Of a stretch of 64,000 nt of DNA, positions 1 through 63,397 are shown piece after piece; position 1 is the stretch's first letter; every line of letters begins with the position of its first letter. The position numbers and the translations under genes were made by a program. The DNA lies in assembly GCA_964510885.1 (NCBI GenBank), contig CAZEDL010000001.1, positions 212,663 to 276,662 on the forward strand. Direction: 5' to 3'. A model generated the notes under the pieces. That model was not told the origin of the DNA and made no database searches. It saw only the letters and a list, made by a program, of their open reading frames with translations. Source of the DNA: an uncultured Gammaproteobacteria bacterium (GTDB taxonomy: Bacteria; Patescibacteriota; Patescibacteriia; Magasanikbacterales; GWA2-37-8).

Positions 1-300
1 CAACGGCAGGTGAATTCGCTGCAATGGAGAGTGATTTCCATTCCAGCGCCGCCGTGATTAGGGAAAGCTTCGAGAGTGCGGGTGGCGGTGGATTTACTGC
101 CGAGTTTGGTGAGGTTTTTTAGATCTTCTTTATTTGTAGGCATAGTTTATTTTTATCGTGTCGTTCCCGCGAAAGCCGGAATCCAGTGGCGTTATACTGA
201 GTGGTAAGTGCCTGGATCACCGCCTGCGCGGGGATGACAGTTGGGTGAAAGGTCGAATTGAAAGGGATTCTTCGCTGCGCTCAGAATGACAAATGAAGGA

Positions 301-10746: not shown

Positions 10747-10914
10747 ATGAAAATTTTGCGAATTGCGACTCTTTTTATCGGGTTTGCCTGCTTAGGGTGG
10801 GGGTACCCCGGACAGTGCGAAAACGACACCAACTGCCCCACGGGGCAGGTGTGTGGGAAGGAAAAAAGGTGCGTTCCAGCGCCAAAGCCAATCCCCAGGC
10901 CACCCACCAAGTAA
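10747..10914 (+). CDS. Small secreted cysteine-rich peptide (56 aa precursor; C-X5-C-X5-C-X5-C + Pro-rich tail)
   Basis: AAGGAG SD 8 nt before ATG 10747; Sec-type signal MKILRIATLFIGFACLGWG; four Cys at regular spacing; strong terminator follows. Confidence 0.5.
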   Translation: MKILRIATLFIGFACLGWGYPGQCENDTNCPTGQVCGKEKRCVPAPKPIPRPPTK

Positions 10915-10936
10915 GACCCCAGTAAGGTAGCCTGAA

Positions 10937-10975
10937 GCCGCCGGTTTCCTCTAACCGGCGGCTCTTTCTTTTTTA
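10937..10975 (+). terminator. Rho-independent terminator
   Basis: AGCCGCCGGTT…AACCGGCGGCT hairpin + TTTCTTTTTT. Confidence 0.65.
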
Positions 10976-11062
10976 AAGCATATTTAACCAGCCATTCCTT
11001 GACAATCGCTGGTTTTTTTGTTATATTTTAGCATTAATTTTGATTCCTTAACCAAGGATTTT

Positions 11063-12637
11063 ATGAATAAGTTTACAGCTTTTTTAAAAAGCCACTCGAC
11101 GATCATGTATGTGATTGTGGCAGTCGTATTGGTAGGCGCTGGCGCAGCTAACTATGCCCGGCATAAGCGGGCGGCAGCCACCGCACCTGTTGACACGACT
11201 ACCCGTGTCAGCCTGGTAGAGGCTAAGACATTTTTGAAAAGTACGGGCGTGGTAGCGGCTACCGGGGTGGTTGAATCGGCCGAGCAGGCAGATGTCCGTA
11301 GCCAGGCCACTGGCCAGGTGGCCCGGGTCAGTGCAGCGGTTGGCAACAGGGTCTATCGCGGTCAAGTATTAGTGAGCCTGACCAGCGCTGATTTACAAGC
11401 TCAGCGCCGACAGGCTGAGGCGGCTTTGAAAGTACAAGAAGCCAGTTTGCAACAGCTCTATAGCGGTGCCAAAACAGAGGATATTAGCCTGGCTGAAGCA
11501 CAACTCGCAGCGGCCCGAAAAAATGTAGAAGATGTACGCAGGCAACAGGAGGTAAACGTGAAAAATGCCTATTCAACGATGCTTAACGCCGGCCTCAGCG
11601 CCATGCCAGCGATTACCAATCAATCTACGGCAGCGCTGACTCTAAGCGGCACCTATACCGGGGAGCCTGGCACGTATAAAATTTCCCTTATCCAGGGCGG
11701 CGATGGGATCACTCTTAATTCTAGCGGCCTCGAAGTTGCCAGTGCCCGGGTCTATCCGGGGATAGCGACTGCGCTTGGTAAACGCGGATTATTCTTCACG
11801 TTCGCAGCCACCGGCAATATTAGCGTCCATGACACCTGGACTATCACGATTCCAAATACCCAGTCCCCTACCTATTTAGCGGCCAGCAATGCCTATGACG
11901 CCACCAAGCAAGCGTCCGAGGCAGCAATTCAAGGAGCAGAGAACGCCTTAGACATTGCTCAAAAAGCTCTTGATCTTAAAAAATCATCGGCTACAAATGC
12001 GCAGATTCAGGCCCAGCTCGCCGCCATAGAACAAGCCAAAGCGTCGATTGCTTTTATCAATGCGCAAATTGCTAAAACCGTAATTACCTCGCCGATTAAC
12101 GGGGTGATTTCAAACGTATCTATAAAATACGGCGAACTGGTTAGTGCTGGGCAGAAAGTGGCCAGTGTCGTAAATAACGGTGGATTACAAGTTAAGGTCT
12201 ATGTCAGCAGCGAAGATCTGCCGCGCCTTAGCGCCAAAGATAAAGTAACAATTGGCGCCACGGCAAACGGTGAGATTACCAATCTGGCGCCTAGTGTTGA
12301 TCCCACCAGTAAAACAGCTGAGGTAGTGATCAGTGTGGTGAACCCTCAAAAATCAGGATTGACGGCAGGACAAAATATTTCGGTCAAAATCAGCGGCGAA
12401 AAATCAAATGGTTCAACTAGCGATGTGTTTGTATTGCCGATTCAAATGGTGACTATTGCCCCCGACCAGAGTGCAACGGTGTACACGGTAGAGACTGGAA
12501 AAATTACCGCTTATCCAGTGGAACTCGGCCCGGTGAATGGTGAAACAGTGACGGTAAAAAAAGGGCTGAAAGCTGATATGAAATTAGTCTCTTCGGGATA
12601 TGGGCTGACGGTGGGACAAACGGTGATTGTTCAGTAA
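11063..12637 (+). CDS. Efflux transporter periplasmic adaptor (membrane-fusion/HlyD-like) subunit
   Basis: N-terminal TM anchor, coiled-coil hairpin (QAQRRQAEAALKVQEASLQQL…), C-terminal beta-barrel pattern; sits 15 bp upstream of RND gene. Confidence 0.65.
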   Translation: MNKFTAFLKSHSTIMYVIVAVVLVGAGAANYARHKRAAATAPVDTTTRVSLVEAKTFLKSTGVVAATGVVESAEQADVRSQATGQVARVSAAVGNRVYRGQVLVSLTSADLQAQRRQAEAALKVQEASLQQLYSGAKTEDISLAEAQLAAARKNVEDVRRQQEVNVKNAYSTMLNAGLSAMPAITNQSTAALTLSGTYTGEPGTYKISLIQGGDGITLNSSGLEVASARVYPGIATALGKRGLFFTFAATGNISVHDTWTITIPNTQSPTYLAASNAYDATKQASEAAIQGAENALDIAQKALDLKKSSATNAQIQAQLAAIEQAKASIAFINAQIAKTVITSPINGVISNVSIKYGELVSAGQKVASVVNNGGLQVKVYVSSEDLPRLSAKDKVTIGATANGEITNLAPSVDPTSKTAEVVISVVNPQKSGLTAGQNISVKISGEKSNGSTSDVFVLPIQMVTIAPDQSATVYTVETGKITAYPVELGPVNGETVTVKKGLKADMKLVSSGYGLTVGQTVIVQ

Positions 12638-34017: not shown

Positions 34018-34350
34018 TCAAACGCTTTTTTTCTTACGTGGTTTCGGCGGTTTAAGATCCGCTGCGCAGGCTGCACATAAAGCATCAAAGCTTTCACCGT
34101 TTTCCAAAAATTCTGTACTCATAATATAAGCCGGTTTGGCACCCGGGTATGGCAAACCCGTCTTGTGCTTCGCACCAAGTATGCCAGTAGTCTGCGGCGT
34201 AATTTTAACAAACACCTGATTATCGCAGATCAAAGCTACGACTTTATTATTATAGTACAGTGCATATTCACCAAACATCGCTCGGATGCGGGCCACATGG
34301 CCATTAACTTGATCGAGCACGAATTCGGCAAAATCGCGGGTGGTGGCCAT
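34018..34350 (-). CDS. TfoX N-terminal domain protein
   Basis: RAMFGEYALYYNNKVVALICDNQVFVK matches TfoX_N core. Confidence 0.5.
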   Translation of the reverse strand: MATTRDFAEFVLDQVNGHVARIRAMFGEYALYYNNKVVALICDNQVFVKITPQTTGILGAKHKTGLPYPGAKPAYIMSTEFLENGESFDALCAACAADLKPPKPRKKKSV

Positions 34351-40695: not shown

Positions 40696-40921
40696 TTGTA
40701 CCCCACAATCCAAGCTCCGCTTTCTAACACCGCCAGAGGTGGCTGCTTTTCTGTGTATTTCCAAAGCCACTGTCTACCGCTTTATTGAGAAGCGAACCCT
40801 CCCCTTCTACAAAATCGGCGGATCAATCCGGTTTAAAGAAAGCGACGTTTTGGACTATATCGAACAGTGTCGGGTACAAACAGCTACAGAACTATATGAG
40901 CACACTAAAACGAGGAAATAA
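40685..40921 (+). CDS. Excisionase/AlpA-like helix-turn-helix DNA-binding protein
   Basis: LTPPEVAAFLCISKATVYRFIEKRTLPFYKIGGSIRF HTH_17 pattern; overlaps int start. Confidence 0.6.
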   Translation: MDADCTPQSKLRFLTPPEVAAFLCISKATVYRFIEKRTLPFYKIGGSIRFKESDVLDYIEQCRVQTATELYEHTKTRK

Positions 40922-42026
40922 CTGGTATATCGATTTCTGGTTTGACCGTATCCGATACCGTAAGCGTAGCCCTGACAATAGCAAAGCAGGGGCAGAGGCT
41001 TACGAAGTACTGCTACGCCAGAAACTAGCTCACGGAGAGCCGATTATAGAGGTTAAAGAGGTTGCTAAAAACATCCCCACCTTTGCAATCTTCTCTCAAG
41101 AGTGGCTAGCGTCGTACGTTCAGAACAATAATAAGTATTCCGAAGCTGAAAATAAACGCTCCGCCCTGAACTATAACCTTATCCCCTTTTTCGGGAAACT
41201 TCCTTTAGATCAGATTGCTACCCGTAACGTAGAGGAATACAAAGCTGCCAAGATTAAGGCTGGACTAAAAAACAAGAGCATCAACAATCATTTGTCTTGC
41301 CTCAGAAAATGCCTGACTACAGCTCAAGAATGGGAAATGCTCGAACATGTGCCAAAGATAAAGCTACTTAAAGTACCACCGCCAGAAACTAAATTCCTAA
41401 ACCAAGCAGAATGCGAACGGTTGCTCAAAGTGGCCACAAACAACTGGTACGACATGATTTTTACCGTCATGCGTACCGGCATGCGATTTGGCGAACTTGT
41501 TGCCCTGAAATGGTCGGATATAGACTTCAACGGAAGAATTATTACCATCCAACGAAGTATAGCCCGTGGAAAAATGGGCAGCACCAAAAGCAACAAAATC
41601 AGAAAAATCCCACTGGCTAGCGACCTATCAAGTCTGCTAGATAGAAAAAGAAGGAACGGAGTATTCGTTTTTGCGGATGGACAAGGGAATCTTCCTAAGC
41701 AGGACTTCTGTCGCAGCCACTTACTACGCCTAGCAGAAAAGGCCGATGTTGAACTTATTGGGTGGCACACTTTACGCCATACCTTCGCCTCGCATCTAGC
41801 TAATAACGGGGTAGCTGTTCATGTCATCCAGCAACTACTTGGACACTCCGACATTAAGACCACGATGCGCTACTCGCATATCGCTCCTACGACGCTGGTG
41901 AACGCAATTAGCGTACTTGAAAACAGCTCTCCACTGTTTTGGACACAGGATGGACACAAGCAAGAAAATTCTGAAATCGGACAGCTCTTCAAAACTTTTT
42001 CTTCGACTCGTATTTTCGCTCAATAA
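40896..42026 (+). CDS. Tyrosine-type site-specific integrase
   Basis: N-terminal arm-binding-like WYIDFWFDRIRYRKRS; C-terminal catalytic R…HTLRHTFAS…H…RY (LGHSDIKTTMRYSHI). Confidence 0.85.
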   Translation: MSTLKRGNNWYIDFWFDRIRYRKRSPDNSKAGAEAYEVLLRQKLAHGEPIIEVKEVAKNIPTFAIFSQEWLASYVQNNNKYSEAENKRSALNYNLIPFFGKLPLDQIATRNVEEYKAAKIKAGLKNKSINNHLSCLRKCLTTAQEWEMLEHVPKIKLLKVPPPETKFLNQAECERLLKVATNNWYDMIFTVMRTGMRFGELVALKWSDIDFNGRIITIQRSIARGKMGSTKSNKIRKIPLASDLSSLLDRKRRNGVFVFADGQGNLPKQDFCRSHLLRLAEKADVELIGWHTLRHTFASHLANNGVAVHVIQQLLGHSDIKTTMRYSHIAPTTLVNAISVLENSSPLFWTQDGHKQENSEIGQLFKTFSSTRIFAQ

Positions 42027-42062: not shown

Positions 42063-42086
42063 TGTAGCCCGTACGGGAATCGCACC
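42063..42086. repeat. Right att direct repeat (24 bp) overlapping 3' end of tRNA-Glu
   Basis: Identical to 35343-35366. Confidence 0.7.
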
Positions 42087-42136
42087 CGTCTTTGAGCCGT
42101 GAGAGGGCCCTGTCCTAACTGATAGACGAACGGGCC
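42065..42136 (-). tRNA. tRNA-Glu (anticodon CTC)
   Basis: Hand-folded: acceptor GGCCCGT/ACGGGCT (one G-U), U8, D-arm TTCGTCTA… like bacterial tRNA-Glu, anticodon loop CTCTCAC, 4-nt variable loop, T-arm ACGGG-TGCGATT-CCCGT (unusual G at position 55), discriminator A. Confidence 0.65.
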
Positions 42137-57103: not shown

Positions 57104-57134
57104 AATTTATAATTTTAAAACACCTTGTCCAATT

Positions 57135-57161
57135 GTCATTCCCGCGAATGCGGGAATCCAG
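57135..57161. repeat. REP-like palindromic element copy A (GTCATTCCCGC-GAAT-GCGGGAATCCAG)
   Basis: 8-bp stem ATTCCCGC/GCGGGAAT, loop GAAT. Confidence 0.6.
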
Positions 57162-57175
57162 GGGTCACTATAATA

Positions 57176-57204
57176 AAAATCACCCTTCAACAGGTGATTT
57201 TTTA
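57176..57204. terminator. Bidirectional terminator after suf/ferredoxin operon
   Basis: AAAATCACC-CTTCAACA-GGTGATTTT + TTT. Confidence 0.6.
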
Positions 57205-57267
57205 ATTATTAATTTTACCAAGGGATCCTTCTCTGCCTGCGGCGGATCAGGATGACACCTGAGGGTG

Positions 57268-59538
57268 TCAATTCTCCCACCAGCGACCAGTTTCAAACAT
57301 TTCGCGTTTCCATTTGTAGACTTGTAATAATTCGCATTCGGTGAGCGGGGCGGTAGACGAGACTGATGTTTCGGTAATCGGAGCACACTCAAGGTGCCCA
57401 GGGACATCATAAGAAATTTTACGTCTGCCGCCTACGGCTTCATTGATGTAGAGGCCGAGCTCGTGCATACCTACCACATTTGGATATTTTTGACGATCGG
57501 CAAAGATAGAATACCCCTCAAATGAACTGGGCGCATTTATACCAAGCATATGAAGCAGTGTTGGGGCCACATCGATGCTTGAGGCGGTGGTGGTCACTTG
57601 CTTTGGCAACACCGTATCCGGCACATACATCAAGAAAAAATTCTCATCGTAATAGCTAAGCTGCTTAGCTTCTTTGGCAAACAGATCGGTGGTGAGGGCG
57701 GCCGGAAAAATGGCATGGTCGGCCACGGCGATGACAATAGTGTTACTGGCAAAACGGCTCGCTTTGAATCCTTGCCAGAATTTTAAAAAGGCATCGTCGG
57801 TGGTGTGAAATGAATTTAATACCAGTTGTTTGCCGTCGCCGTAGGGAACCGTATCTTTGGCTAGGTCAAACGGCGGGTGCGTGTCTACGGTTGCGAGCAT
57901 GGTGACTGAAGGCTCGGGAGATTTGGCCAAAAATTCCGTCACGGCCGGGAATAATTGATGATCGGAATAGCCCCATGCCAGCGGAGCGCCGGAAATATAA
58001 TCCTTAAGCTCGTCGGTGCCATAGACTTTATCTACGCCCGCACTGGTGAAAATACCATCTTTATGGGCAAAATCTTTGTCGACCGCGGTCAGATAATTAA
58101 CTTCTTTGTACCCACCCTGCCGTTTTAATAGTTCTGGAAAGCAGAGCAGGTGGTGGGCTTGAAGCTTGCGATCATTCTGAATTTCGTTGTGGCCGGTGGG
58201 AGGCAAGAAGGAGCACAGTTGCGACAAGGTGCCGGTGATGGTAGGCGTGGAGCCGTTAAAATAATTATGAAACACGGTGGTATTTGGATCAGCCGCCATA
58301 GTGTTGAACCCGGGGGTGAGATCGGCAAAACGCGGATTGTAGACGCCGGTCATGCGGGCGGAAAAAGATTCAAGCAGCAGAATCACGATATTTGGATGAT
58401 TGGTCTGCAGGCGGCTCGGCAATAATTTTTGTGTGGAGGAAGTAAATAATGTCTCGCGGTGGGCCGGCTTAGATGCCTCGGGGTTATAGTTAAGGCCAAA
58501 GCGCTGCATTTTTTTTTGCAGAGCAACGGGCAATAGTACGTGCTGTTCAGTCCCCTGCCAGCGCTGCATAAAGGTGCGTAGCACCACTCGCTCTGGCGCA
58601 GTCCGAAAAGAACTAAGGCCAAGCAGGAAGAATAGCCCGCCGGCAATGAGGCCGCTCTGGTACCACGACCAGTAACGAGCCGGAGTCTTGCTCTGAGCCT
58701 TGATTAACCTGACTAGAACGTAGATAAAACTGAGGAGTGCGATAATCCCGACTGCAATGACCAGGTAGACAAAATTGTTCTCAGCTACCCCTTCGCCACC
58801 ACCGCGGTGATCCCAGATCACCGGACTAAAATAGAGGCCGGAAAAATAGAGCACCGAAATGTTGGCTACCCAAAAAATAATGTTGAATATAAATAATGAA
58901 CCCCACAGAGTTACGCCGGCATACCGCCAATAGCGGGGTAGACGCTGATAGATAAAACTGGCTAGGGCAAAACCAATCAGCCAGAAGCCTGTCATAGATA
59001 CCACCCGGAACACCACGATATTAAAATATTTTATATCAGCATCGAGAATATAGTAGTGGTAAGAGGCATATTGGCAGAGCGCCTGAAACCAGAAGACAAA
59101 ATACCCCATGGCAAACATGTGGCGGTGAGTACTCAGCCACGGGCCAGCATTGGGGTGAGTCTGAAGTTCGCGATCGACGCGCCAGAATATAAACGGGAAT
59201 AGCAGGGCCGCGTAGCCGAGACTCAGCAGTTCATTTTTAGAAAAGAAAATCAGGAAAAATAAAGACAACAGGAAGATGAATTGCGGTAGAAAATCCTGAA
59301 ATTCTTTTTGCCAGAACGGATGCCGGGAAAAGCGCCGCACCAACCAATGATAGGCGTATAGCCCAGTTTCAATGGCAATAAATACAGCCAGAGACAGTGC
59401 GGCCACAATTATTACAAACCGCAGGTGATTATGCTTCACCAAATGATACCACCCCCACCCACCGGCAATAATACCGGCAGCGAGGCCGGTATAGAGGTGC
59501 TTTTTGACGAAGGCAATGATCCAGCTAAGAACTTTCAT
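57268..59538 (-). CDS. LTA-synthase/sulfatase-family membrane protein (polytopic N-domain + extracytoplasmic alkaline-phosphatase-like domain)
   Basis: 756 aa; ~10 TM N-terminus; C-terminal sulfatase-like region (…ILLLESFSARMTG…). Confidence 0.6.
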   Translation of the reverse strand: MKVLSWIIAFVKKHLYTGLAAGIIAGGWGWYHLVKHNHLRFVIIVAALSLAVFIAIETGLYAYHWLVRRFSRHPFWQKEFQDFLPQFIFLLSLFFLIFFSKNELLSLGYAALLFPFIFWRVDRELQTHPNAGPWLSTHRHMFAMGYFVFWFQALCQYASYHYYILDADIKYFNIVVFRVVSMTGFWLIGFALASFIYQRLPRYWRYAGVTLWGSLFIFNIIFWVANISVLYFSGLYFSPVIWDHRGGGEGVAENNFVYLVIAVGIIALLSFIYVLVRLIKAQSKTPARYWSWYQSGLIAGGLFFLLGLSSFRTAPERVVLRTFMQRWQGTEQHVLLPVALQKKMQRFGLNYNPEASKPAHRETLFTSSTQKLLPSRLQTNHPNIVILLLESFSARMTGVYNPRFADLTPGFNTMAADPNTTVFHNYFNGSTPTITGTLSQLCSFLPPTGHNEIQNDRKLQAHHLLCFPELLKRQGGYKEVNYLTAVDKDFAHKDGIFTSAGVDKVYGTDELKDYISGAPLAWGYSDHQLFPAVTEFLAKSPEPSVTMLATVDTHPPFDLAKDTVPYGDGKQLVLNSFHTTDDAFLKFWQGFKASRFASNTIVIAVADHAIFPAALTTDLFAKEAKQLSYYDENFFLMYVPDTVLPKQVTTTASSIDVAPTLLHMLGINAPSSFEGYSIFADRQKYPNVVGMHELGLYINEAVGGRRKISYDVPGHLECAPITETSVSSTAPLTECELLQVYKWKREMFETGRWWEN

Positions 59539-59542
59539 GCGA

Positions 59543-59914
59543 TTATTCTTCAGGGTTATATTCTTTGGCGGCGCGAGCGCCGAGCTTTTGTTTTTTTTCG
59601 TTGCCGTTCATGGTTACTTTATGTTTTTTAAGCTCAAGCTCAAGATAATCCCGAATTTTATCAATAGCCTTATATAACGTCTCTTCATTTTTGGAAGCAA
59701 ACAAATCGTTCCCGGCCACGCTGAGGCGGCATTCGGCCATAAAGACATCGCCTTTTTGATGGTGTTTTGAGTCTTGACCGACTACCACTTCGGCTTTGAT
59801 AATTGGGCTAAAAAATTTTTCAAGACTCTCAATTTTTTTATGCGTATATTCTTCGATAGCTGGGGTAAGACTAATACCTTTACCGGTGATATTGATTTGC
59901 ATATTTTTTTTCAT
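59543..59914 (-). CDS. hpf: Ribosome hibernation-promoting factor (HPF/RaiA, S30EA family)
   Basis: INITGKGISLTPAIEEY…KAEVVV pattern. Confidence 0.8.
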   Translation of the reverse strand: MKKNMQINITGKGISLTPAIEEYTHKKIESLEKFFSPIIKAEVVVGQDSKHHQKGDVFMAECRLSVAGNDLFASKNEETLYKAIDKIRDYLELELKKHKVTMNGNEKKQKLGARAAKEYNPEE

Positions 59915-59919
59915 TAAAA

Positions 59920-59946
59920 CATGAAAACACTAGAACATTAAAACAA
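59920..59946. repeat. Conserved ~27-nt motif copy 2 (upstream of hpf), also left arm of MITE-like unit
   Basis: CATTAAAACATGAAAACACTAGAACAT. Confidence 0.55.
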
Positions 59947-60156
59947 AATTGGTCGGTGTCATTCCCGCGCAGCAGCGGGAATCCAGTCGCAAATTTGCTA
60001 CATCACTTTGTCATTCTGAGTGGAACGAAGAATCCTTTATAGCTAACAGGAGTAATAAGTTAGCGTTAAGGGATCCTTCACTACGTTCAGCATGACAAGT
60101 ACTACAAACGCGTATTTTTTGTTTTTATGTTCTCGTGTTCTAGTGTTTTTCCATGC
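59928..60156. repeat. MITE-like ~230-bp intergenic unit with ~20-bp terminal inverted repeats containing REP-like copy B and a degenerate copy
   Basis: Left CATGAAAACACTAGAACAT (59932-59950) vs right ATGTTCTCGTGTTCTAGTGTTTTTCCATG (60128-60156, reverse complement CATGGAAAAACACTAGAACACGAGAACAT). Confidence 0.4.
59948..59976. repeat. REP-like palindromic element copy B (loop GCAGCA)
   Basis: GTCATTCCCGCGCAGCAGCGGGAATCCAG. Confidence 0.6.
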
Positions 60157-60175
60157 GAATGGATTTCACTGTAGT

Positions 60176-61120
60176 TCAATATGTTTTCATGATCTGTACT
60201 TCTGGCTCAAGTTTGACCCCAAAGTTAGTATACGCCCTACTAACTACTTCTTCAACCACGGCGAGCACGTCTGCCTGCGTCGCCTTATCAGCATTGACCA
60301 AAAAGTTGCCGTGCTCTTTTGAAACCATTGCGCCACCCACTTGGTAGCCCTTTAATTTATTTTGCTCCGTAGTCCAACCGGCCGGCACCTCCTGTTTGAT
60401 TTTAAATGACGCGGGGAGAAGTGACTTATCGCCCGGCCAAACCGAAAACGGAATATTCTTGAAAAAACTGCCAGCTGAAGGAGCGGCGGGGTATTTTCCA
60501 TTGCGGCCTTTAATCGTGGCTTGCATGGTTTGCATTAGTTCGAGCTTGTTGCCCGGAGAAGTTTTGAACCACGCGCGGATAACCACGTCGGTGTTATGTT
60601 TAAAGATGCTGTCGCGATATCCATAGGCACAGTCTTCTGGCCGGAGCATGATAACTTCACCATCGCGCCAGACTTCAATTTGGCGGAGTGATCGGCTGGT
60701 GTCACTATCCATGGCCCCAGCATTACCACGCACGGCACCTCCCACAGTCCCCGGCATTCCGGCGGCCCACTCGAGGCCAGCCAAATTATTCTGAACCGCC
60801 AGCATGACCAGGGCCGCAAAGGGAGCGCCTGCCTCGGCTATAATTTCTTGGCCGTCGATTTTTATGCCCTGGGTGGCCACCTTTATAACTACCCCTTCCC
60901 ATGCTTCATCCTGCCATAAGAGGTTTGATCCTCCGCCTAAAATAAAATAGGGCACCCCTTCGCCTACTAAAAAATTGAGGAGCTTAATTAGGTTATCCGA
61001 GTCCATGACCTCAACCATATATTGCGCTGGCCCACCAATATGGAAAGTCGTATATTTACTCATCAGCGCATTTGAGCGGACGCGGCCGTAGGTTTGTAAG
61101 TCTTTATATAATGTATCCAT
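60176..61120 (-). CDS. murB: UDP-N-acetylenolpyruvoylglucosamine reductase
   Basis: FAD-binding HIGGPA…GGGSNLL pattern, 314 aa. Confidence 0.85.
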   Translation of the reverse strand: MDTLYKDLQTYGRVRSNALMSKYTTFHIGGPAQYMVEVMDSDNLIKLLNFLVGEGVPYFILGGGSNLLWQDEAWEGVVIKVATQGIKIDGQEIIAEAGAPFAALVMLAVQNNLAGLEWAAGMPGTVGGAVRGNAGAMDSDTSRSLRQIEVWRDGEVIMLRPEDCAYGYRDSIFKHNTDVVIRAWFKTSPGNKLELMQTMQATIKGRNGKYPAAPSAGSFFKNIPFSVWPGDKSLLPASFKIKQEVPAGWTTEQNKLKGYQVGGAMVSKEHGNFLVNADKATQADVLAVVEEVVSRAYTNFGVKLEPEVQIMKTY

Positions 61121-61244
61121 AAAATGCCTTAACTGAGCGGTATTATACTTATTATTACTTCGTATTTCGGCCGTCTATTTCAGTGCCTAGGACAGCGTTG
61201 ACGGCGGTTGCCAACTGCATCTTTTTTTAGTATACTACCCGCCT

Positions 61245-62477
61245 ATGAAAGCCCTTGAATTAGCGCTAAAAAAGGCTCCTATAGTCTATGTTACCCGCGA
61301 TATTGAGCGGGCTCTTGGGCTGCCCGCAGGGGTTAAAAACTATGTCATCATAACAAATGCCACCCCCTTTGCAAAGGAAATAGCCAAAGGGCGGCAGAAT
61401 GTTATGCTTGTCGGAGGCAAGAAGCTGCTTGATACACGAGAGCTACTCGCACACTCTGCCACCAAACGATACGTGAAAAAATTAAGCTCGCCGCGGATTG
61501 TAGTGTTTAAGAACACTCAGGCAATTGAACGAGAGTGCTTAAAAAATGGCTGGCAGCTTTTGAATCCGTCGGCAGTAGTCGCGAGCGCGATTGAAGAAAA
61601 AATTAGCCAAGTAGCCTGGCTCGGGCCACTACAAAAATATTTGCCGCCCCACCGGATTGTCACCTGCAAGCAGGTACGTTTTACTGGCACGCCGTTTATT
61701 ATGCAATTCAACCGGGCGCACACCGGCAGCGGCACCATGCTCATTTCAAATGACGGCGAATTAGCAGAATTTCAAAACCTGTTTCCAGATCGACCAGTTA
61801 GAATTACGGAGTATATCACCGGGCCTTTATTTACCAATAACAACGTGGTATGGGACACCACTGTGTTGACCGGTAATATCAGCTGCCAAATCACCGGACT
61901 GCCACCATTTACCAGTCGGCCATTTGCTACCATTGGCAATGATTGGAAATTACCACACCATATTTTAAATAAAAAGCAATTACAGCAGTTTAATAAAATG
62001 GCAACTGACATTGGCAAACAACTTCAGAAGAGCGGGTGGCGCGGATTGTTCGGGATTGATGTGGTGCTCGATGCAAAGACTAAAAAATTATACCTGATAG
62101 AAATTAATGCCAGGCAGCCAGCGAGCACTACCTACGAATCAGAGCTGCAACAACTGGTTAAAAAGAAAAAAGCGACTTCGCTAACTACTTTTGCAGCACA
62201 TCTGTCTGCGTTACTCGAACTGCCGTATAAAAAAGAAACACTAGCACCGATTAGCGACGGGGCGCAGGTTGTACAAAAAAGAATTACGAATAAAGAATTA
62301 CGAATTAAGGAGTGTGCGAAGAAACTTAAAGCTAAAGGATTTAACATTATTTCCTATACGAATACTGAGCCAGAATCAGATTGGCTACGTATTCAAAGCA
62401 AGACTAGCCTAATGAAAAATTACCAGATGTTTAATGAACAGGGAGCGATGATTCAAAAAATGTTAGCGGAATTATAA
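61245..62477 (+). CDS. ATP-grasp domain protein of unknown specificity
   Basis: LYLIEINARQP ATP-grasp catalytic loop; does not match canonical Ddl N-terminus. Confidence 0.6.
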   Translation: MKALELALKKAPIVYVTRDIERALGLPAGVKNYVIITNATPFAKEIAKGRQNVMLVGGKKLLDTRELLAHSATKRYVKKLSSPRIVVFKNTQAIERECLKNGWQLLNPSAVVASAIEEKISQVAWLGPLQKYLPPHRIVTCKQVRFTGTPFIMQFNRAHTGSGTMLISNDGELAEFQNLFPDRPVRITEYITGPLFTNNNVVWDTTVLTGNISCQITGLPPFTSRPFATIGNDWKLPHHILNKKQLQQFNKMATDIGKQLQKSGWRGLFGIDVVLDAKTKKLYLIEINARQPASTTYESELQQLVKKKKATSLTTFAAHLSALLELPYKKETLAPISDGAQVVQKRITNKELRIKECAKKLKAKGFNIISYTNTEPESDWLRIQSKTSLMKNYQMFNEQGAMIQKMLAEL

Positions 62478-62491
62478 TATTAAGTGAACGA

Positions 62492-62518
62492 CTGGATTCC
62501 CGCCTACGCGGGAATGAC
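62492..62518. repeat. REP-like palindromic element copy C (inverted orientation; loop CTAC/GTAG) with adjacent degenerate copy
   Basis: CTGGATTCCCGCCTACGCGGGAATGAC; degenerate CTGGATTCTCC…GGGAACGACAA at ~62547-62575. Confidence 0.6.
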
Positions 62519-62578
62519 AATGAATGATAAAGAACCTGGATTCTCCAAACTGAACCCCGGGAACGACAATAAAAGTAT

Positions 62579-63397
62579 ATGCTGTCACCAAAAGCTGAAC
62601 AACTTATTAACGACTATTTTAATCTGCCGTTTGCCGGCATCCCGGGAGTGCGCTGCCCGTATTTTAATAATGCTATACTCAGGCGGCGCGCCGAGTTGCG
62701 AGCCCTGATTGGGAAAGGCACGCCAAAAGAAATCGTGGATGAGGCCAAAATTATTTCACTGCAGTATCACACCGGTTTATTTGATACCAGCGGCAACTGC
62801 TGTTTGCATAATGAACATACCGGAGAAAAAACTACTCCAGAACAAATCAGAAAATTTTTAATTGAACGCAAACTCGGGGTTGAATGTTCTGGTTTTGTAA
62901 CTCAAGTGCTCAGCGCTCACTATTTAGAAAGCAAAAAAATAGTGTTGACCAAAAAATTAACCATCTGCCCGCGCACCCGGCTACTACGTCGTGTAATTTG
63001 TCGTCTGCGTCCGATTGAAAATTGCGGTGTTACCGTGTATGCGGATAATGATAATACAAGTGTTGTCGTAGGCAGCAGCGGGCCATACGCTTACCACAAT
63101 GTACAACCGGGTGATGTTATTGTCTTAATCGGGGCTGGGCCACGCAAGAATCATAATCATATTTTACTCATTACTGATGTCACTAATTCTGTCATCAGCT
63201 ATACCCATGCCCGGGCTTGGAAAAGCGAAGGGTTGTATGGACATGGGGTGGCTCGTGGCACAATTACGATTGTAAATCCTGGCAATAATCTGCTGGCACA
63301 AAGGTTTGAAGAAAATGGTATGATCGGTGCTGACAATGAAACATTTGTGGAAATGACCGAGGCTCAGCAGCTCGAAATTAGACGCGTGAATGTATGA
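62579..63397 (+). CDS. Hypothetical protein with candidate Cys/His papain-like (CHAP/NlpC-P60-type) signature
   Basis: GVECSGFV (Cys) … NHNHILLITDV (His) ~80 aa apart; weak. Confidence 0.35.
   Translation: MLSPKAEQLINDYFNLPFAGIPGVRCPYFNNAILRRRAELRALIGKGTPKEIVDEAKIISLQYHTGLFDTSGNCCLHNEHTGEKTTPEQIRKFLIERKLGVECSGFVTQVLSAHYLESKKIVLTKKLTICPRTRLLRRVICRLRPIENCGVTVYADNDNTSVVVGSSGPYAYHNVQPGDVIVLIGAGPRKNHNHILLITDVTNSVISYTHARAWKSEGLYGHGVARGTITIVNPGNNLLAQRFEENGMIGADNETFVEMTEAQQLEIRRVNV

Follow-up and report, generated by a model that had tools for sequence, protein, structure and literature searches.

What is the short palindrome that recurs between housekeeping genes in a 64-kb stretch of contig CAZEDL010000001.1 (here called the window), which comes from a Magasanikbacteria-like metagenome-assembled genome (MAG) of the Patescibacteria? 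A first-pass annotation, made from the sequence alone, had described the palindrome at three intergenic loci, with a conserved 8-bp stem, variable loops and degenerate second copies nearby. It had compared these with repetitive extragenic palindromes (REP) and bacterial interspersed mosaic elements (BIME), or with a dispersed protein- or RNA-binding hairpin. A search of the window for ATTCCCGC-N(4-6)-GCGGGAAT gave three exact matches, where 0.00 were expected from 100 dinucleotide-preserving shuffles. This confirmed the palindrome at 57135, 59958 and 62492-62518 (minus strand); the second locus had been placed at 59948, a slip of 10 nt, and was otherwise as described. With their flanks, the exact copies read GTCATTCCCGC-loop-GCGGGAATCCAG, with the loops GAAT, GCAGCA and GTAG, and all three fold as 8-bp hairpins in single-stranded DNA (ssDNA), at -8.2 to -9.0 kcal/mol.

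Probable members of a known family of nuclease sites, in a phylum not previously among its hosts

Chenal et al. (Nat Commun 2025; PMC11893778) redefined the Neisseria repeat dRS3 (ATTCCC-N8-GGGAAT) as a 28-nt oriented element, the NTS (CGTCATTCCCGCGMAVGCGGGAATCYRG), and generalised the NTS to "Ssn-related motifs" (SRM), described by the degenerate motif HGTCWYN(0-2)YYVSBRHN(0-5)WNVSBRGN(0-2)RNCYNB. Its ligand, SsnA, is a 94-aa single-domain GIY-YIG protein that binds the hairpin only as ssDNA and cleaves a few nucleotides upstream of it. Binding depends critically on the C next to the 3′ side of the palindrome, and cleavage on the GTC at its 5′ side (PMC11893778). For four homologues, ssDNA of the forward strand was reported to be cut, while double-stranded DNA (dsDNA), RNA and the reverse strand were left uncut, and SsnA did not bind the RNA form (PMC11893778).

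The window palindromes have this design. They share with the NTS and SRMs the 8-bp palindrome, the oriented flanks (GTC on the 5′ side, CCAG on the 3′ side) and a GNAN loop, and they are likewise multicopy and intergenic and occur in convergent pairs, as around ssn genes. Two of them, at 57134-57161 and 62492-62519, match the NTS consensus at 26 of 28 positions, and a third, at 159-186, matches at 25 of 28; none would be expected by chance. In the two best copies the mismatches fall at position 1 and in the loop, leaving the palindrome and the GTC and C untouched. The SRM degenerate motif had three hits in the window (0.16 expected; at most 2 in any of 200 shuffles) and is fitted by 57134-57161 on the plus strand and 62492-62519 on the minus strand. 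The GTC on the 5′ side and the CC on the 3′ side are invariant in all window copies and in repeats around Ssn genes, and all copies have the 5′ flank T-GTC-AT.

The likeness extends to dRS3 and the intergenic mosaic elements of Neisseria: there are exact dRS3 copies at 57138-57157 and 62496-62515 (59961-59982 has N10 in place of N8), and the spacers hold mixed clusters of small repeats. However, dRS3 is defined by the ends of the palindrome only, whereas the window elements have the longer oriented flanks of the NTS and lie in a host unrelated to Neisseria. They differ from published SRM systems in that the host is not a member of the Pseudomonadati, that no ssn gene lies in the window, that the copies are two mismatches off the strict NTS and that a second class of element, introduced below, is interleaved with them in three of four spacers. 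We concluded that the window palindromes are probably SRMs of the NTS/dRS3 family, which would have spread as gene-less derivatives of SRM-ssn-SRM units and would be, or have been, Ssn substrates. The element is a known one (2025; dRS3 in 2000) in a new host phylum, and the appropriate label is SRM/NTS, not REP. The idea of a dispersed protein-binding hairpin was sound, in that the family matches the motif bound by SsnA.

Ten elements of two kinds in four spacers

A covariance model built from family members gave five matches in the window to the palindrome just described (class 1), all with E ≤ 4e-7. Two of the five, 160-186 on the plus strand and 212-238 on the minus strand, were added by a structure-aware scan together with the covariance model. 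Beside class 1 lies a second kind of element, class 2, with the consensus GTCATYCTGAGCGNAGCGAAGRATCC and the pattern GTCATYCTGA-GCGNAGC-GAAGRATCC. In total there are ten elements, namely, five of class 1, four of class 2 and one decayed class-1 copy, and all ten lie in four spacers (143-300, 57104-57267, 59915-60175 and 62478-62578). They are intergenic throughout, though spacers make up only 12% of the window, and in three of the four spacers class 1 and class 2 lie within 100 nt of each other. Each of the spacers 143-300, 57104-57267 and 59915-60175 contains a convergent pair. The elements are as follows, with one unrelated hairpin that lies among them.

160-186, plus strand: class-1 SRM with a mutated stem, GTCGTTCCCGCGAAAGCCGGAATCCAG; 3 mismatches to the NTS; covariance-model E 3.8e-7.
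212-238, minus strand: class-1 SRM with the stem variant ATCCCCGC/GCGGGGAT and one stem mismatch; covariance-model E 3e-8; convergent with the copy at 160.
265-290, minus strand: putative class-2 SRM, GTCATTCTGAGCGCAGCGAAGAATCC, a perfect consensus copy (0 mismatches) that holds the GCGNAGC motif of a DNA mini-hairpin.
57135-57161, plus strand: class-1 SRM/NTS hairpin, GTCATTCCCGCGAATGCGGGAATCCAG, loop GAAT; covariance-model E 3.8e-12; ssDNA fold -9.0 kcal/mol, z -2.8; 32 nt past the stop codon of the ferredoxin gene.
57175-57202, plus strand: hairpin with a T-run that resembles an ordinary terminator and is flanked by the two repeats of its spacer; not a member of the family.
57223-57256, minus strand: putative class-2 SRM, long-loop variant, GTCATCCTGATCCGCCGCAGGCAGAGAAGGATCC; covariance-model E 0.03; convergent with the copy at 57135 and 12 nt past the stop codon of the sulfatase-family gene; its inner stem, read directly from the sequence, is closed by a GCA triloop.
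59958-59986, plus strand: class-1 SRM with the 6-nt loop GCAGCA, GTCATTCCCGCGCAGCAGCGGGAATCCAG; covariance-model E 3.6e-9; fold -8.2 kcal/mol.
60010-60035, plus strand: putative class-2 SRM, GTCATTCTGAGTGGAACGAAGAATCC; 2 mismatches to the class-2 consensus.
60071-60096, minus strand: putative class-2 SRM, decayed, GTCATGCTGAACGTAGTGAAGGATCC; 3 mismatches to the class-2 consensus; convergent with the copy at 60010, with which it forms an 87-nt inverted-pair module.
62492-62518, minus strand: class-1 SRM/NTS hairpin, GTCATTCCCGCGTAGGCGGGAATCCAG, loop GTAG; covariance-model E 2.1e-12; fold z -4.8.
62536-62567, minus strand: decayed class-1 copy, GTCGTTCCCGGGGTTCAGTTTGGAGAATCCAG; weak covariance-model match (E 4) and no stable fold.

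The degenerate second copies that had been noted at the second and third loci therefore exist but differ in kind: 62536-62567 is a decayed class-1 copy, as described, whereas 60010-60035 belongs to class 2. The elements at 57223-57256 and 60071-60096, and the whole three-element locus at 143-300, had not been described before. The palindrome is thus not confined to three copies in a duplicated segment: the window has more copies, the family is widespread elsewhere and, because their flanks differ, the copies are not part of a duplicated segment.

The class-1 repeat accompanies a small GIY-YIG gene

In SRM systems, the ssnA-family gene encodes a GIY-YIG protein of the cd10448 type and is typically bracketed by repeats. 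The exact class-1 pattern was found in at least 120 IMG/VR contigs, and the 25-27-mer also occurs in replicons of many Proteobacteria. In 5 of the 120 class-1 IMG/VR contigs listed, a small GIY-YIG open reading frame (ORF) lies directly beside the repeat. A search of IMG/VR with an alignment of those GIY-YIG proteins led to 33 loci. Fourteen of these match the strict repeat pattern, usually with the gene between two convergent copies. For the remaining 19 loci, the flanks of 18 were read; most show variant GTCAT-hairpin-CC(C)AG repeats, some of them on one side of the gene. L180 and L186 showed no repeat on the upstream side and L176 none on the downstream side; L175 ends at the contig edge.

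The Ssn-like IMG/VR proteins are 53% identical to the ssnA orthologue of N. gonorrhoeae, a 94-aa protein that is flanked by NTS copies and has Y6, Y17 and E64 in the numbering of PMC11893778. Two PLSDB records of N. gonorrhoeae, NZ_CP119140.1 and NZ_CP119142.1, are 2.17-Mb "plasmids" that are evidently chromosomes; in NZ_CP119142.1 the ssnA frame is unconnected to the nearest upstream ATG, and a frameshift or another start is possible. Ssn homologues of the Rhizobiaceae (Rhizobium, Shinella and Sinorhizobium; L208-L210) are bracketed by repeats of the GTCATCCTCGGGCTTGACCCGAGGATCC type, which have 9-bp stems and occur in several copies per kilobase. These may be the same as the intergenic mosaic repeats that have long been known from rhizobia.

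Among neighbouring class-1 repeats in IMG/VR less than 600 nt apart, 16 pairs were convergent, 5 divergent and 20 tandem, and the convergent gaps came in two size groups, one at about 17-61 nt (gene-less pairs) and another at 267-329 nt (the size of an ssn gene).

The first-pass annotation had argued for selection on structure because the stem was conserved while the loop changed. The three exact stems in the window are identical and show no covariation. Support comes from the wider family, in repeats picked only by their flanks and by their position near Ssn genes. Stem positions paired in 84% of cells, compared with 24-51% for slid partners. Pair 6-21 was CG in 13 cases, UA in 8 and GC in 3, and pair 9-18 also switched. 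The observed covariation score was reached by 0 of 500 shuffles. We concluded that selection on structure holds for the repeat family.

Class 2, a putative second site class with a predicted mini-hairpin core

The class-2 26-mer pattern occurs exactly in 33 IMG/VR contigs. Position 3 of its stem covaries, with 29 T/A and 30 C/G pairs and no mixed pairs, in a search pattern that allowed all four combinations. We propose that the element forms a hairpin with a 5-bp stem (ATYCT/AGRAT), tandem G.A/A.G pairs and a GCGNAGC mini-hairpin at its centre. GCGNAGC is the "mini-hairpin DNA" of Hirao and co-workers, made up of two G-C pairs and a sheared G.A pair; it is nuclease resistant, binds SSB poorly and loses most of its stability as RNA, the related octamer melting at 76.5°C as DNA and at 39°C as RNA (PMC13037366). 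Class-2 centres share the d(GCGNAGC)/d(GCGNNAGC) motif, and class-1 copies with the loop GAAA contain GCGAAAGC. However, the mini-hairpin is a structural motif of phage ssDNA origins and N4 promoters and not a repeat family (PMC13037366). Its presence inside SRMs is an observation of the present analysis and the fold is predicted: the match of the GCGCAGC core in 265-290 is one of sequence, and the ViennaRNA DNA parameters do not model the mini-hairpin fold. The decayed class-2 copies in the window keep the inner closing pairs through two-sided changes (GTGGAAC and ACGTAGT). Class-2 variants elsewhere have other G...C-closed hairpins as the core, and one IMG/VR variant has GCGTCAGC.

A plasmid of Planktothrix agardhii connects class 2 to a nuclease gene. 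It encodes a GIY-YIG protein (WP_083616022.1) that shares 48% identity with Neisseria SsnA (E 2e-28). The gene is bracketed by GTCATTCTGAGTGAAACGAAGAATC on both sides, and an inverted long-loop partner accompanies each copy. The window module 60010-60096, including its decayed right arm at 60071-60096, aligns without gaps to the Planktothrix modules, and its left arm (60010-60035) differs by 1 nt. In Spirosoma, an Ssn homologue lies between repeats, GTCATCCCGAGGAACGAGGGATC, that share this architecture. Because class 2 brackets the Planktothrix ssn gene, and repeats of the same architecture surround the Spirosoma homologue, class 2 is best read as another Ssn site class, a reading drawn from two loci and not from a survey. 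The annotated class-2 sites in Calothrix and Granulicella are single intergenic copies, and a literature search on class-2 sequence strings returned nothing relevant. As far as we have checked, and with few loci for each, three points appear to be new: the interleaving of the two classes in a genome of the Candidate Phyla Radiation (CPR), the bracketing of a cyanobacterial ssn gene by a class that falls outside the published SRM pattern, and the putative mini-hairpin core of class 2.

Evidence against the assignment

Several observations weigh against reading the window elements as Ssn sites. The published search rule for the NTS allows at most 1 mismatch to the consensus (PMC11893778), and under that rule no window copy qualifies, since the best has 2 mismatches. 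The published SRM pattern is not fitted by 59958, with its 6-nt loop, nor by any class-2 copy. Several window copies have broken stems and may be relics. The connection between class 2 and Ssn consists of one locus, in Planktothrix, and one of similar architecture, in Spirosoma; in 314 kb around the 33 class-2 IMG/VR contigs, there was neither a GIY-YIG ORF nor a recurrent neighbour. Finally, neither an Ssn gene nor any other GIY-YIG gene was found in the 64-kb window. For this search we used phmmer with GIY-YIG sequences, Pfam (59 ORFs) and two hidden Markov models built from real Ssn homologues, which were run against six-frame translations; the small ORFs in every gap were also inspected. 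Because one ssn gene per genome is normal, a window of 64 kb is uninformative on whether the genome has one. Among family resources, NCBIfam has no Ssn family model, and a large protein search with the Ssn profile gave only sphingomonad-like homologues among the matches listed.

Alternative explanations

The elements could be decaying relics that arrived with a mobile SRM-ssn-SRM unit since lost and that now have no function. In 5 of the 10 elements the stem is mismatched or unstable, the window has no ssn gene, and close relatives manage without the repeats. However, there are perfect copies as well, three of class 1 and one of class 2, and these point to recent spread or to maintenance. We consider complete decay unlikely, though it deserves to be kept in mind.

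The elements could instead act at the RNA level, as intrinsic terminators or as hairpins that stabilise mRNA from the 3′ untranslated region. All copies lie between genes, as we found on checking their position relative to gene ends; those at 57135 and 57223-57256 are just downstream of stop codons, and class-1 stems would pair as RNA too. Against this, no intact class-1 copy has a T-run or a called terminator, so that we rejected intrinsic termination for these copies. The only repeat called as a terminator is the decayed one, at 62538-62557 on the minus strand, and the canonical terminator-like site at 57175-57202 is a hairpin of its own. The copies also differ in their orientation to transcription: 57135 is sense, whereas 59958 and 62518 are antisense. 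There was no match to an Rfam family; searches at gathering and permissive thresholds gave only sub-threshold FtrB/STnc230 noise. SsnA does not bind the RNA form of its site (PMC11893778), and the GCGNAGC core of class 2 is much less stable as RNA than as DNA (PMC13037366) and is present on one strand only. A role as RNA elements is therefore improbable.

REP elements carry a conserved GTAG-type tetranucleotide 5′ of the palindrome. The comparison with REP/BIME elements mobilised by a RAYT, an IS200/IS605-like REP-associated tyrosine transposase, holds for the architecture: in both cases short, imperfect, intergenic palindromes with an oriented 5′ flank are dispersed and clustered, and neighbours are often in alternating orientation. 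As in the REP/BIME-RAYT systems of Enterobacteria and Pseudomonas, the palindromes act as single-stranded hairpins, repeats bracket the gene of their own enzyme in inverted orientation, and gene-less copies build up in spacers. The comparison fails for the family. The window sequence is that of the NTS and SRMs, without similarity to REP, and the 5′ flank is GTC-AT and not GTAG. The enzyme of REP systems is an HUH Y1 transposase, whereas that of SRMs is a GIY-YIG nuclease, and the bracketed gene in 38 independent loci has a GIY-YIG domain and not Y1_Tnp. A RAYT had been suggested as the partner to look for; neither a RAYT-like gene nor any other transposase family was found by Pfam among the 59 window ORFs (ORFs of at least 100 aa). 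We regard mobilisation by a RAYT as very improbable, although the analogy with REP/BIME is one that the authors of PMC11893778 drew themselves.

Equally slight is the chance that the palindromes are attachment or target sites of an IS110/Piv-type recombinase or a filamentous prophage, as reported for Neisseria dRS3: PMC11893778 cites dRS3 as the target of a specific phage recombinase and two exact dRS3 copies lie in the window, but the 64-kb window has no IS110/Piv-like or filamentous phage gene, its only recombinase is a tyrosine integrase at a tRNA-Glu gene 15 kb from any repeat, and no repeat is interrupted by an insertion. A CRISPR (clustered regularly interspaced short palindromic repeats) array, already dismissed in the first-pass annotation, was rejected, as there is no regular spacing with unique spacers and the exact copies lie 2.5-2.8 kb apart, in both orientations, with housekeeping genes between them.

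Origin of the repeats in this lineage

Four GTDB species share with the window the gene order o272-ATPgrasp-murB-hpf-sulfatase-ferredoxin-suf, with MurB proteins 69-73% identical. Neither repeat class was found in 78 kb of these four syntenic relatives, in which the best covariance-model match had an E of 0.5. The murB-hpf spacer, which is 261 nt long in the window, measures about 30-95 nt in the relatives. Because the repeats are absent from the syntenic relatives and the murB-hpf spacers are short there, the repeats were gained in the lineage of the window. In JGI metagenomes, we found only relatives at 38% identity or less.

The window's murB-hpf spacer has a further feature.

59917-60150: pre-existing inverted repeat of the murB-hpf spacer, with arms at about 59917-59950 and 60113-60150 and three elements between the arms.

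The hpf-proximal part of this spacer is nearly identical between the window and the relative L124, which also has the inverted repeat, there with its arms about 28 nt apart. The AT-rich arm, TGTTTTAATGTTCTRGTGTTTTMATGTTTTAATG, is near-identical between the window and L124 (10945-11030), though the proteins are only about 70% identical. The murB-hpf inverted repeat lies upstream of the gene for the ribosome hibernation factor and may be a regulatory element conserved there.

The same spacer is occupied differently in a more distant sequence, L198 (JGI Ga0247841_10000878; MurB 35% identical). At 10905-11200, an 85-aa single-domain GIY-YIG gene lies in the murB-hpf spacer, bracketed by the perfect 14-bp inverted repeat ACCCCGTTAGAAGC / GCTTCTAACGGGGT. 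Its product is 38% identical to Planktothrix Ssn over the N-terminal 66 residues and is without the C-terminal region of Ssn. The gene is thus a second and distinct GIY-YIG element of the murB-hpf spacer.

The named replicons in which class 1 was found were all from Proteobacteria (Azospirillum, Neisseria, sphingomonads, Legionella, Cupriavidus and others), and those with class 2 were from Cyanobacteria and an acidobacterium. The two classes did not co-occur in any of 153 IMG/VR loci, unlike in the window. These distributions can be brought together in a tentative scenario, which we consider possible without favouring it: class 2 would be a distinct Ssn site class, and this Patescibacteria genome would have acquired both it and the proteobacterial NTS class, the two having inserted side by side and, in the murB-hpf spacer, between the arms of a pre-existing inverted repeat.

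Genomic setting

The genes next to the elements are ordinary housekeeping genes. Pfam identified SufS/U/C and other Fe-S assembly genes, ferredoxin, a sulfatase-family membrane protein, a ribosome hibernation factor, MurB, an ATP-grasp protein, MraY and a Vut_1 transporter. The window is part of an NCBI contig of 400,724 bp. Among named TypA proteins, those nearest to the window's (72-75% identity) come from MAGs of Candidatus Magasanikbacteria and Patescibacteria. The relatives L121-L124 (GTDB; CAZINT010000001.1 and others) are filed as Gammaproteobacteria, whereas TypA groups them with Magasanikbacteria/Patescibacteria; the taxonomy of these records is probably wrong.

At the third locus, a 74-aa ORF (62484-62708, plus strand) starts with MNDWIPAYAGMT, and its N-terminus is the translated class-1 hairpin. 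This ORF is almost certainly a spurious translation artefact of the repeats. A similar artefact is seen in several IMG/VR Ssn genes, which have N-terminal extensions such as SFPRRRESS.

Between 34407 and 42136 lies a low-GC stretch (0.32-0.38) with seven consecutive ORFs that have no Pfam match. The tyrosine integrase gene (40785-42026, plus strand) is at its end and abuts tRNA-Glu(CTC) (42064-42136, minus strand); the stretch resembles an island or prophage that inserted at the tRNA gene. Just outside it, an ORF at 34018-34350 on the minus strand encodes a TfoX N-terminal domain, which is typical of competence regulators. This ORF may be relevant, in that Ssn and the NTS act on transforming DNA in Neisseria.

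Proposed mechanism and implications

If the window elements work as published for Neisseria and three other homologues, the GTCAT strand would fold into a hairpin once the DNA is single stranded, as it would become during transformation uptake, replication, conjugation or repair. An SsnA-like protein would bind the palindrome together with the C immediately 3′ of it and would then cut a few nucleotides 5′ of the GTC, sparing dsDNA, RNA and the complementary strand. In Neisseria, SsnA lowers the integration of transforming DNA that bears the NTS (PMC11893778). In the Patescibacteria lineage, the repeats would have spread as gene-less derivatives of SRM-ssn-SRM units, and those in the window would be, or would have been, targets of one or two Ssn nucleases whose genes lie in another part of the genome.

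With these elements the family reaches the CPR, whose members are believed to rely on DNA uptake and for which a nuclease that cuts incoming ssDNA at such sites would be relevant. Two specificity classes coexist in the same spacers, and the DNA-only mini-hairpin predicted for class 2 gives a structural reason for reading the sites as ssDNA. Ssn enzymes are under development as site-specific ssDNA cutters, for which new site classes would be useful leads. If the tentative scenario of a twofold acquisition holds, SRM-ssn units would be mobile across phyla, with hairpins of single-stranded DNA as their target, and a DNA-scavenging CPR bacterium would be using them to police incoming ssDNA.

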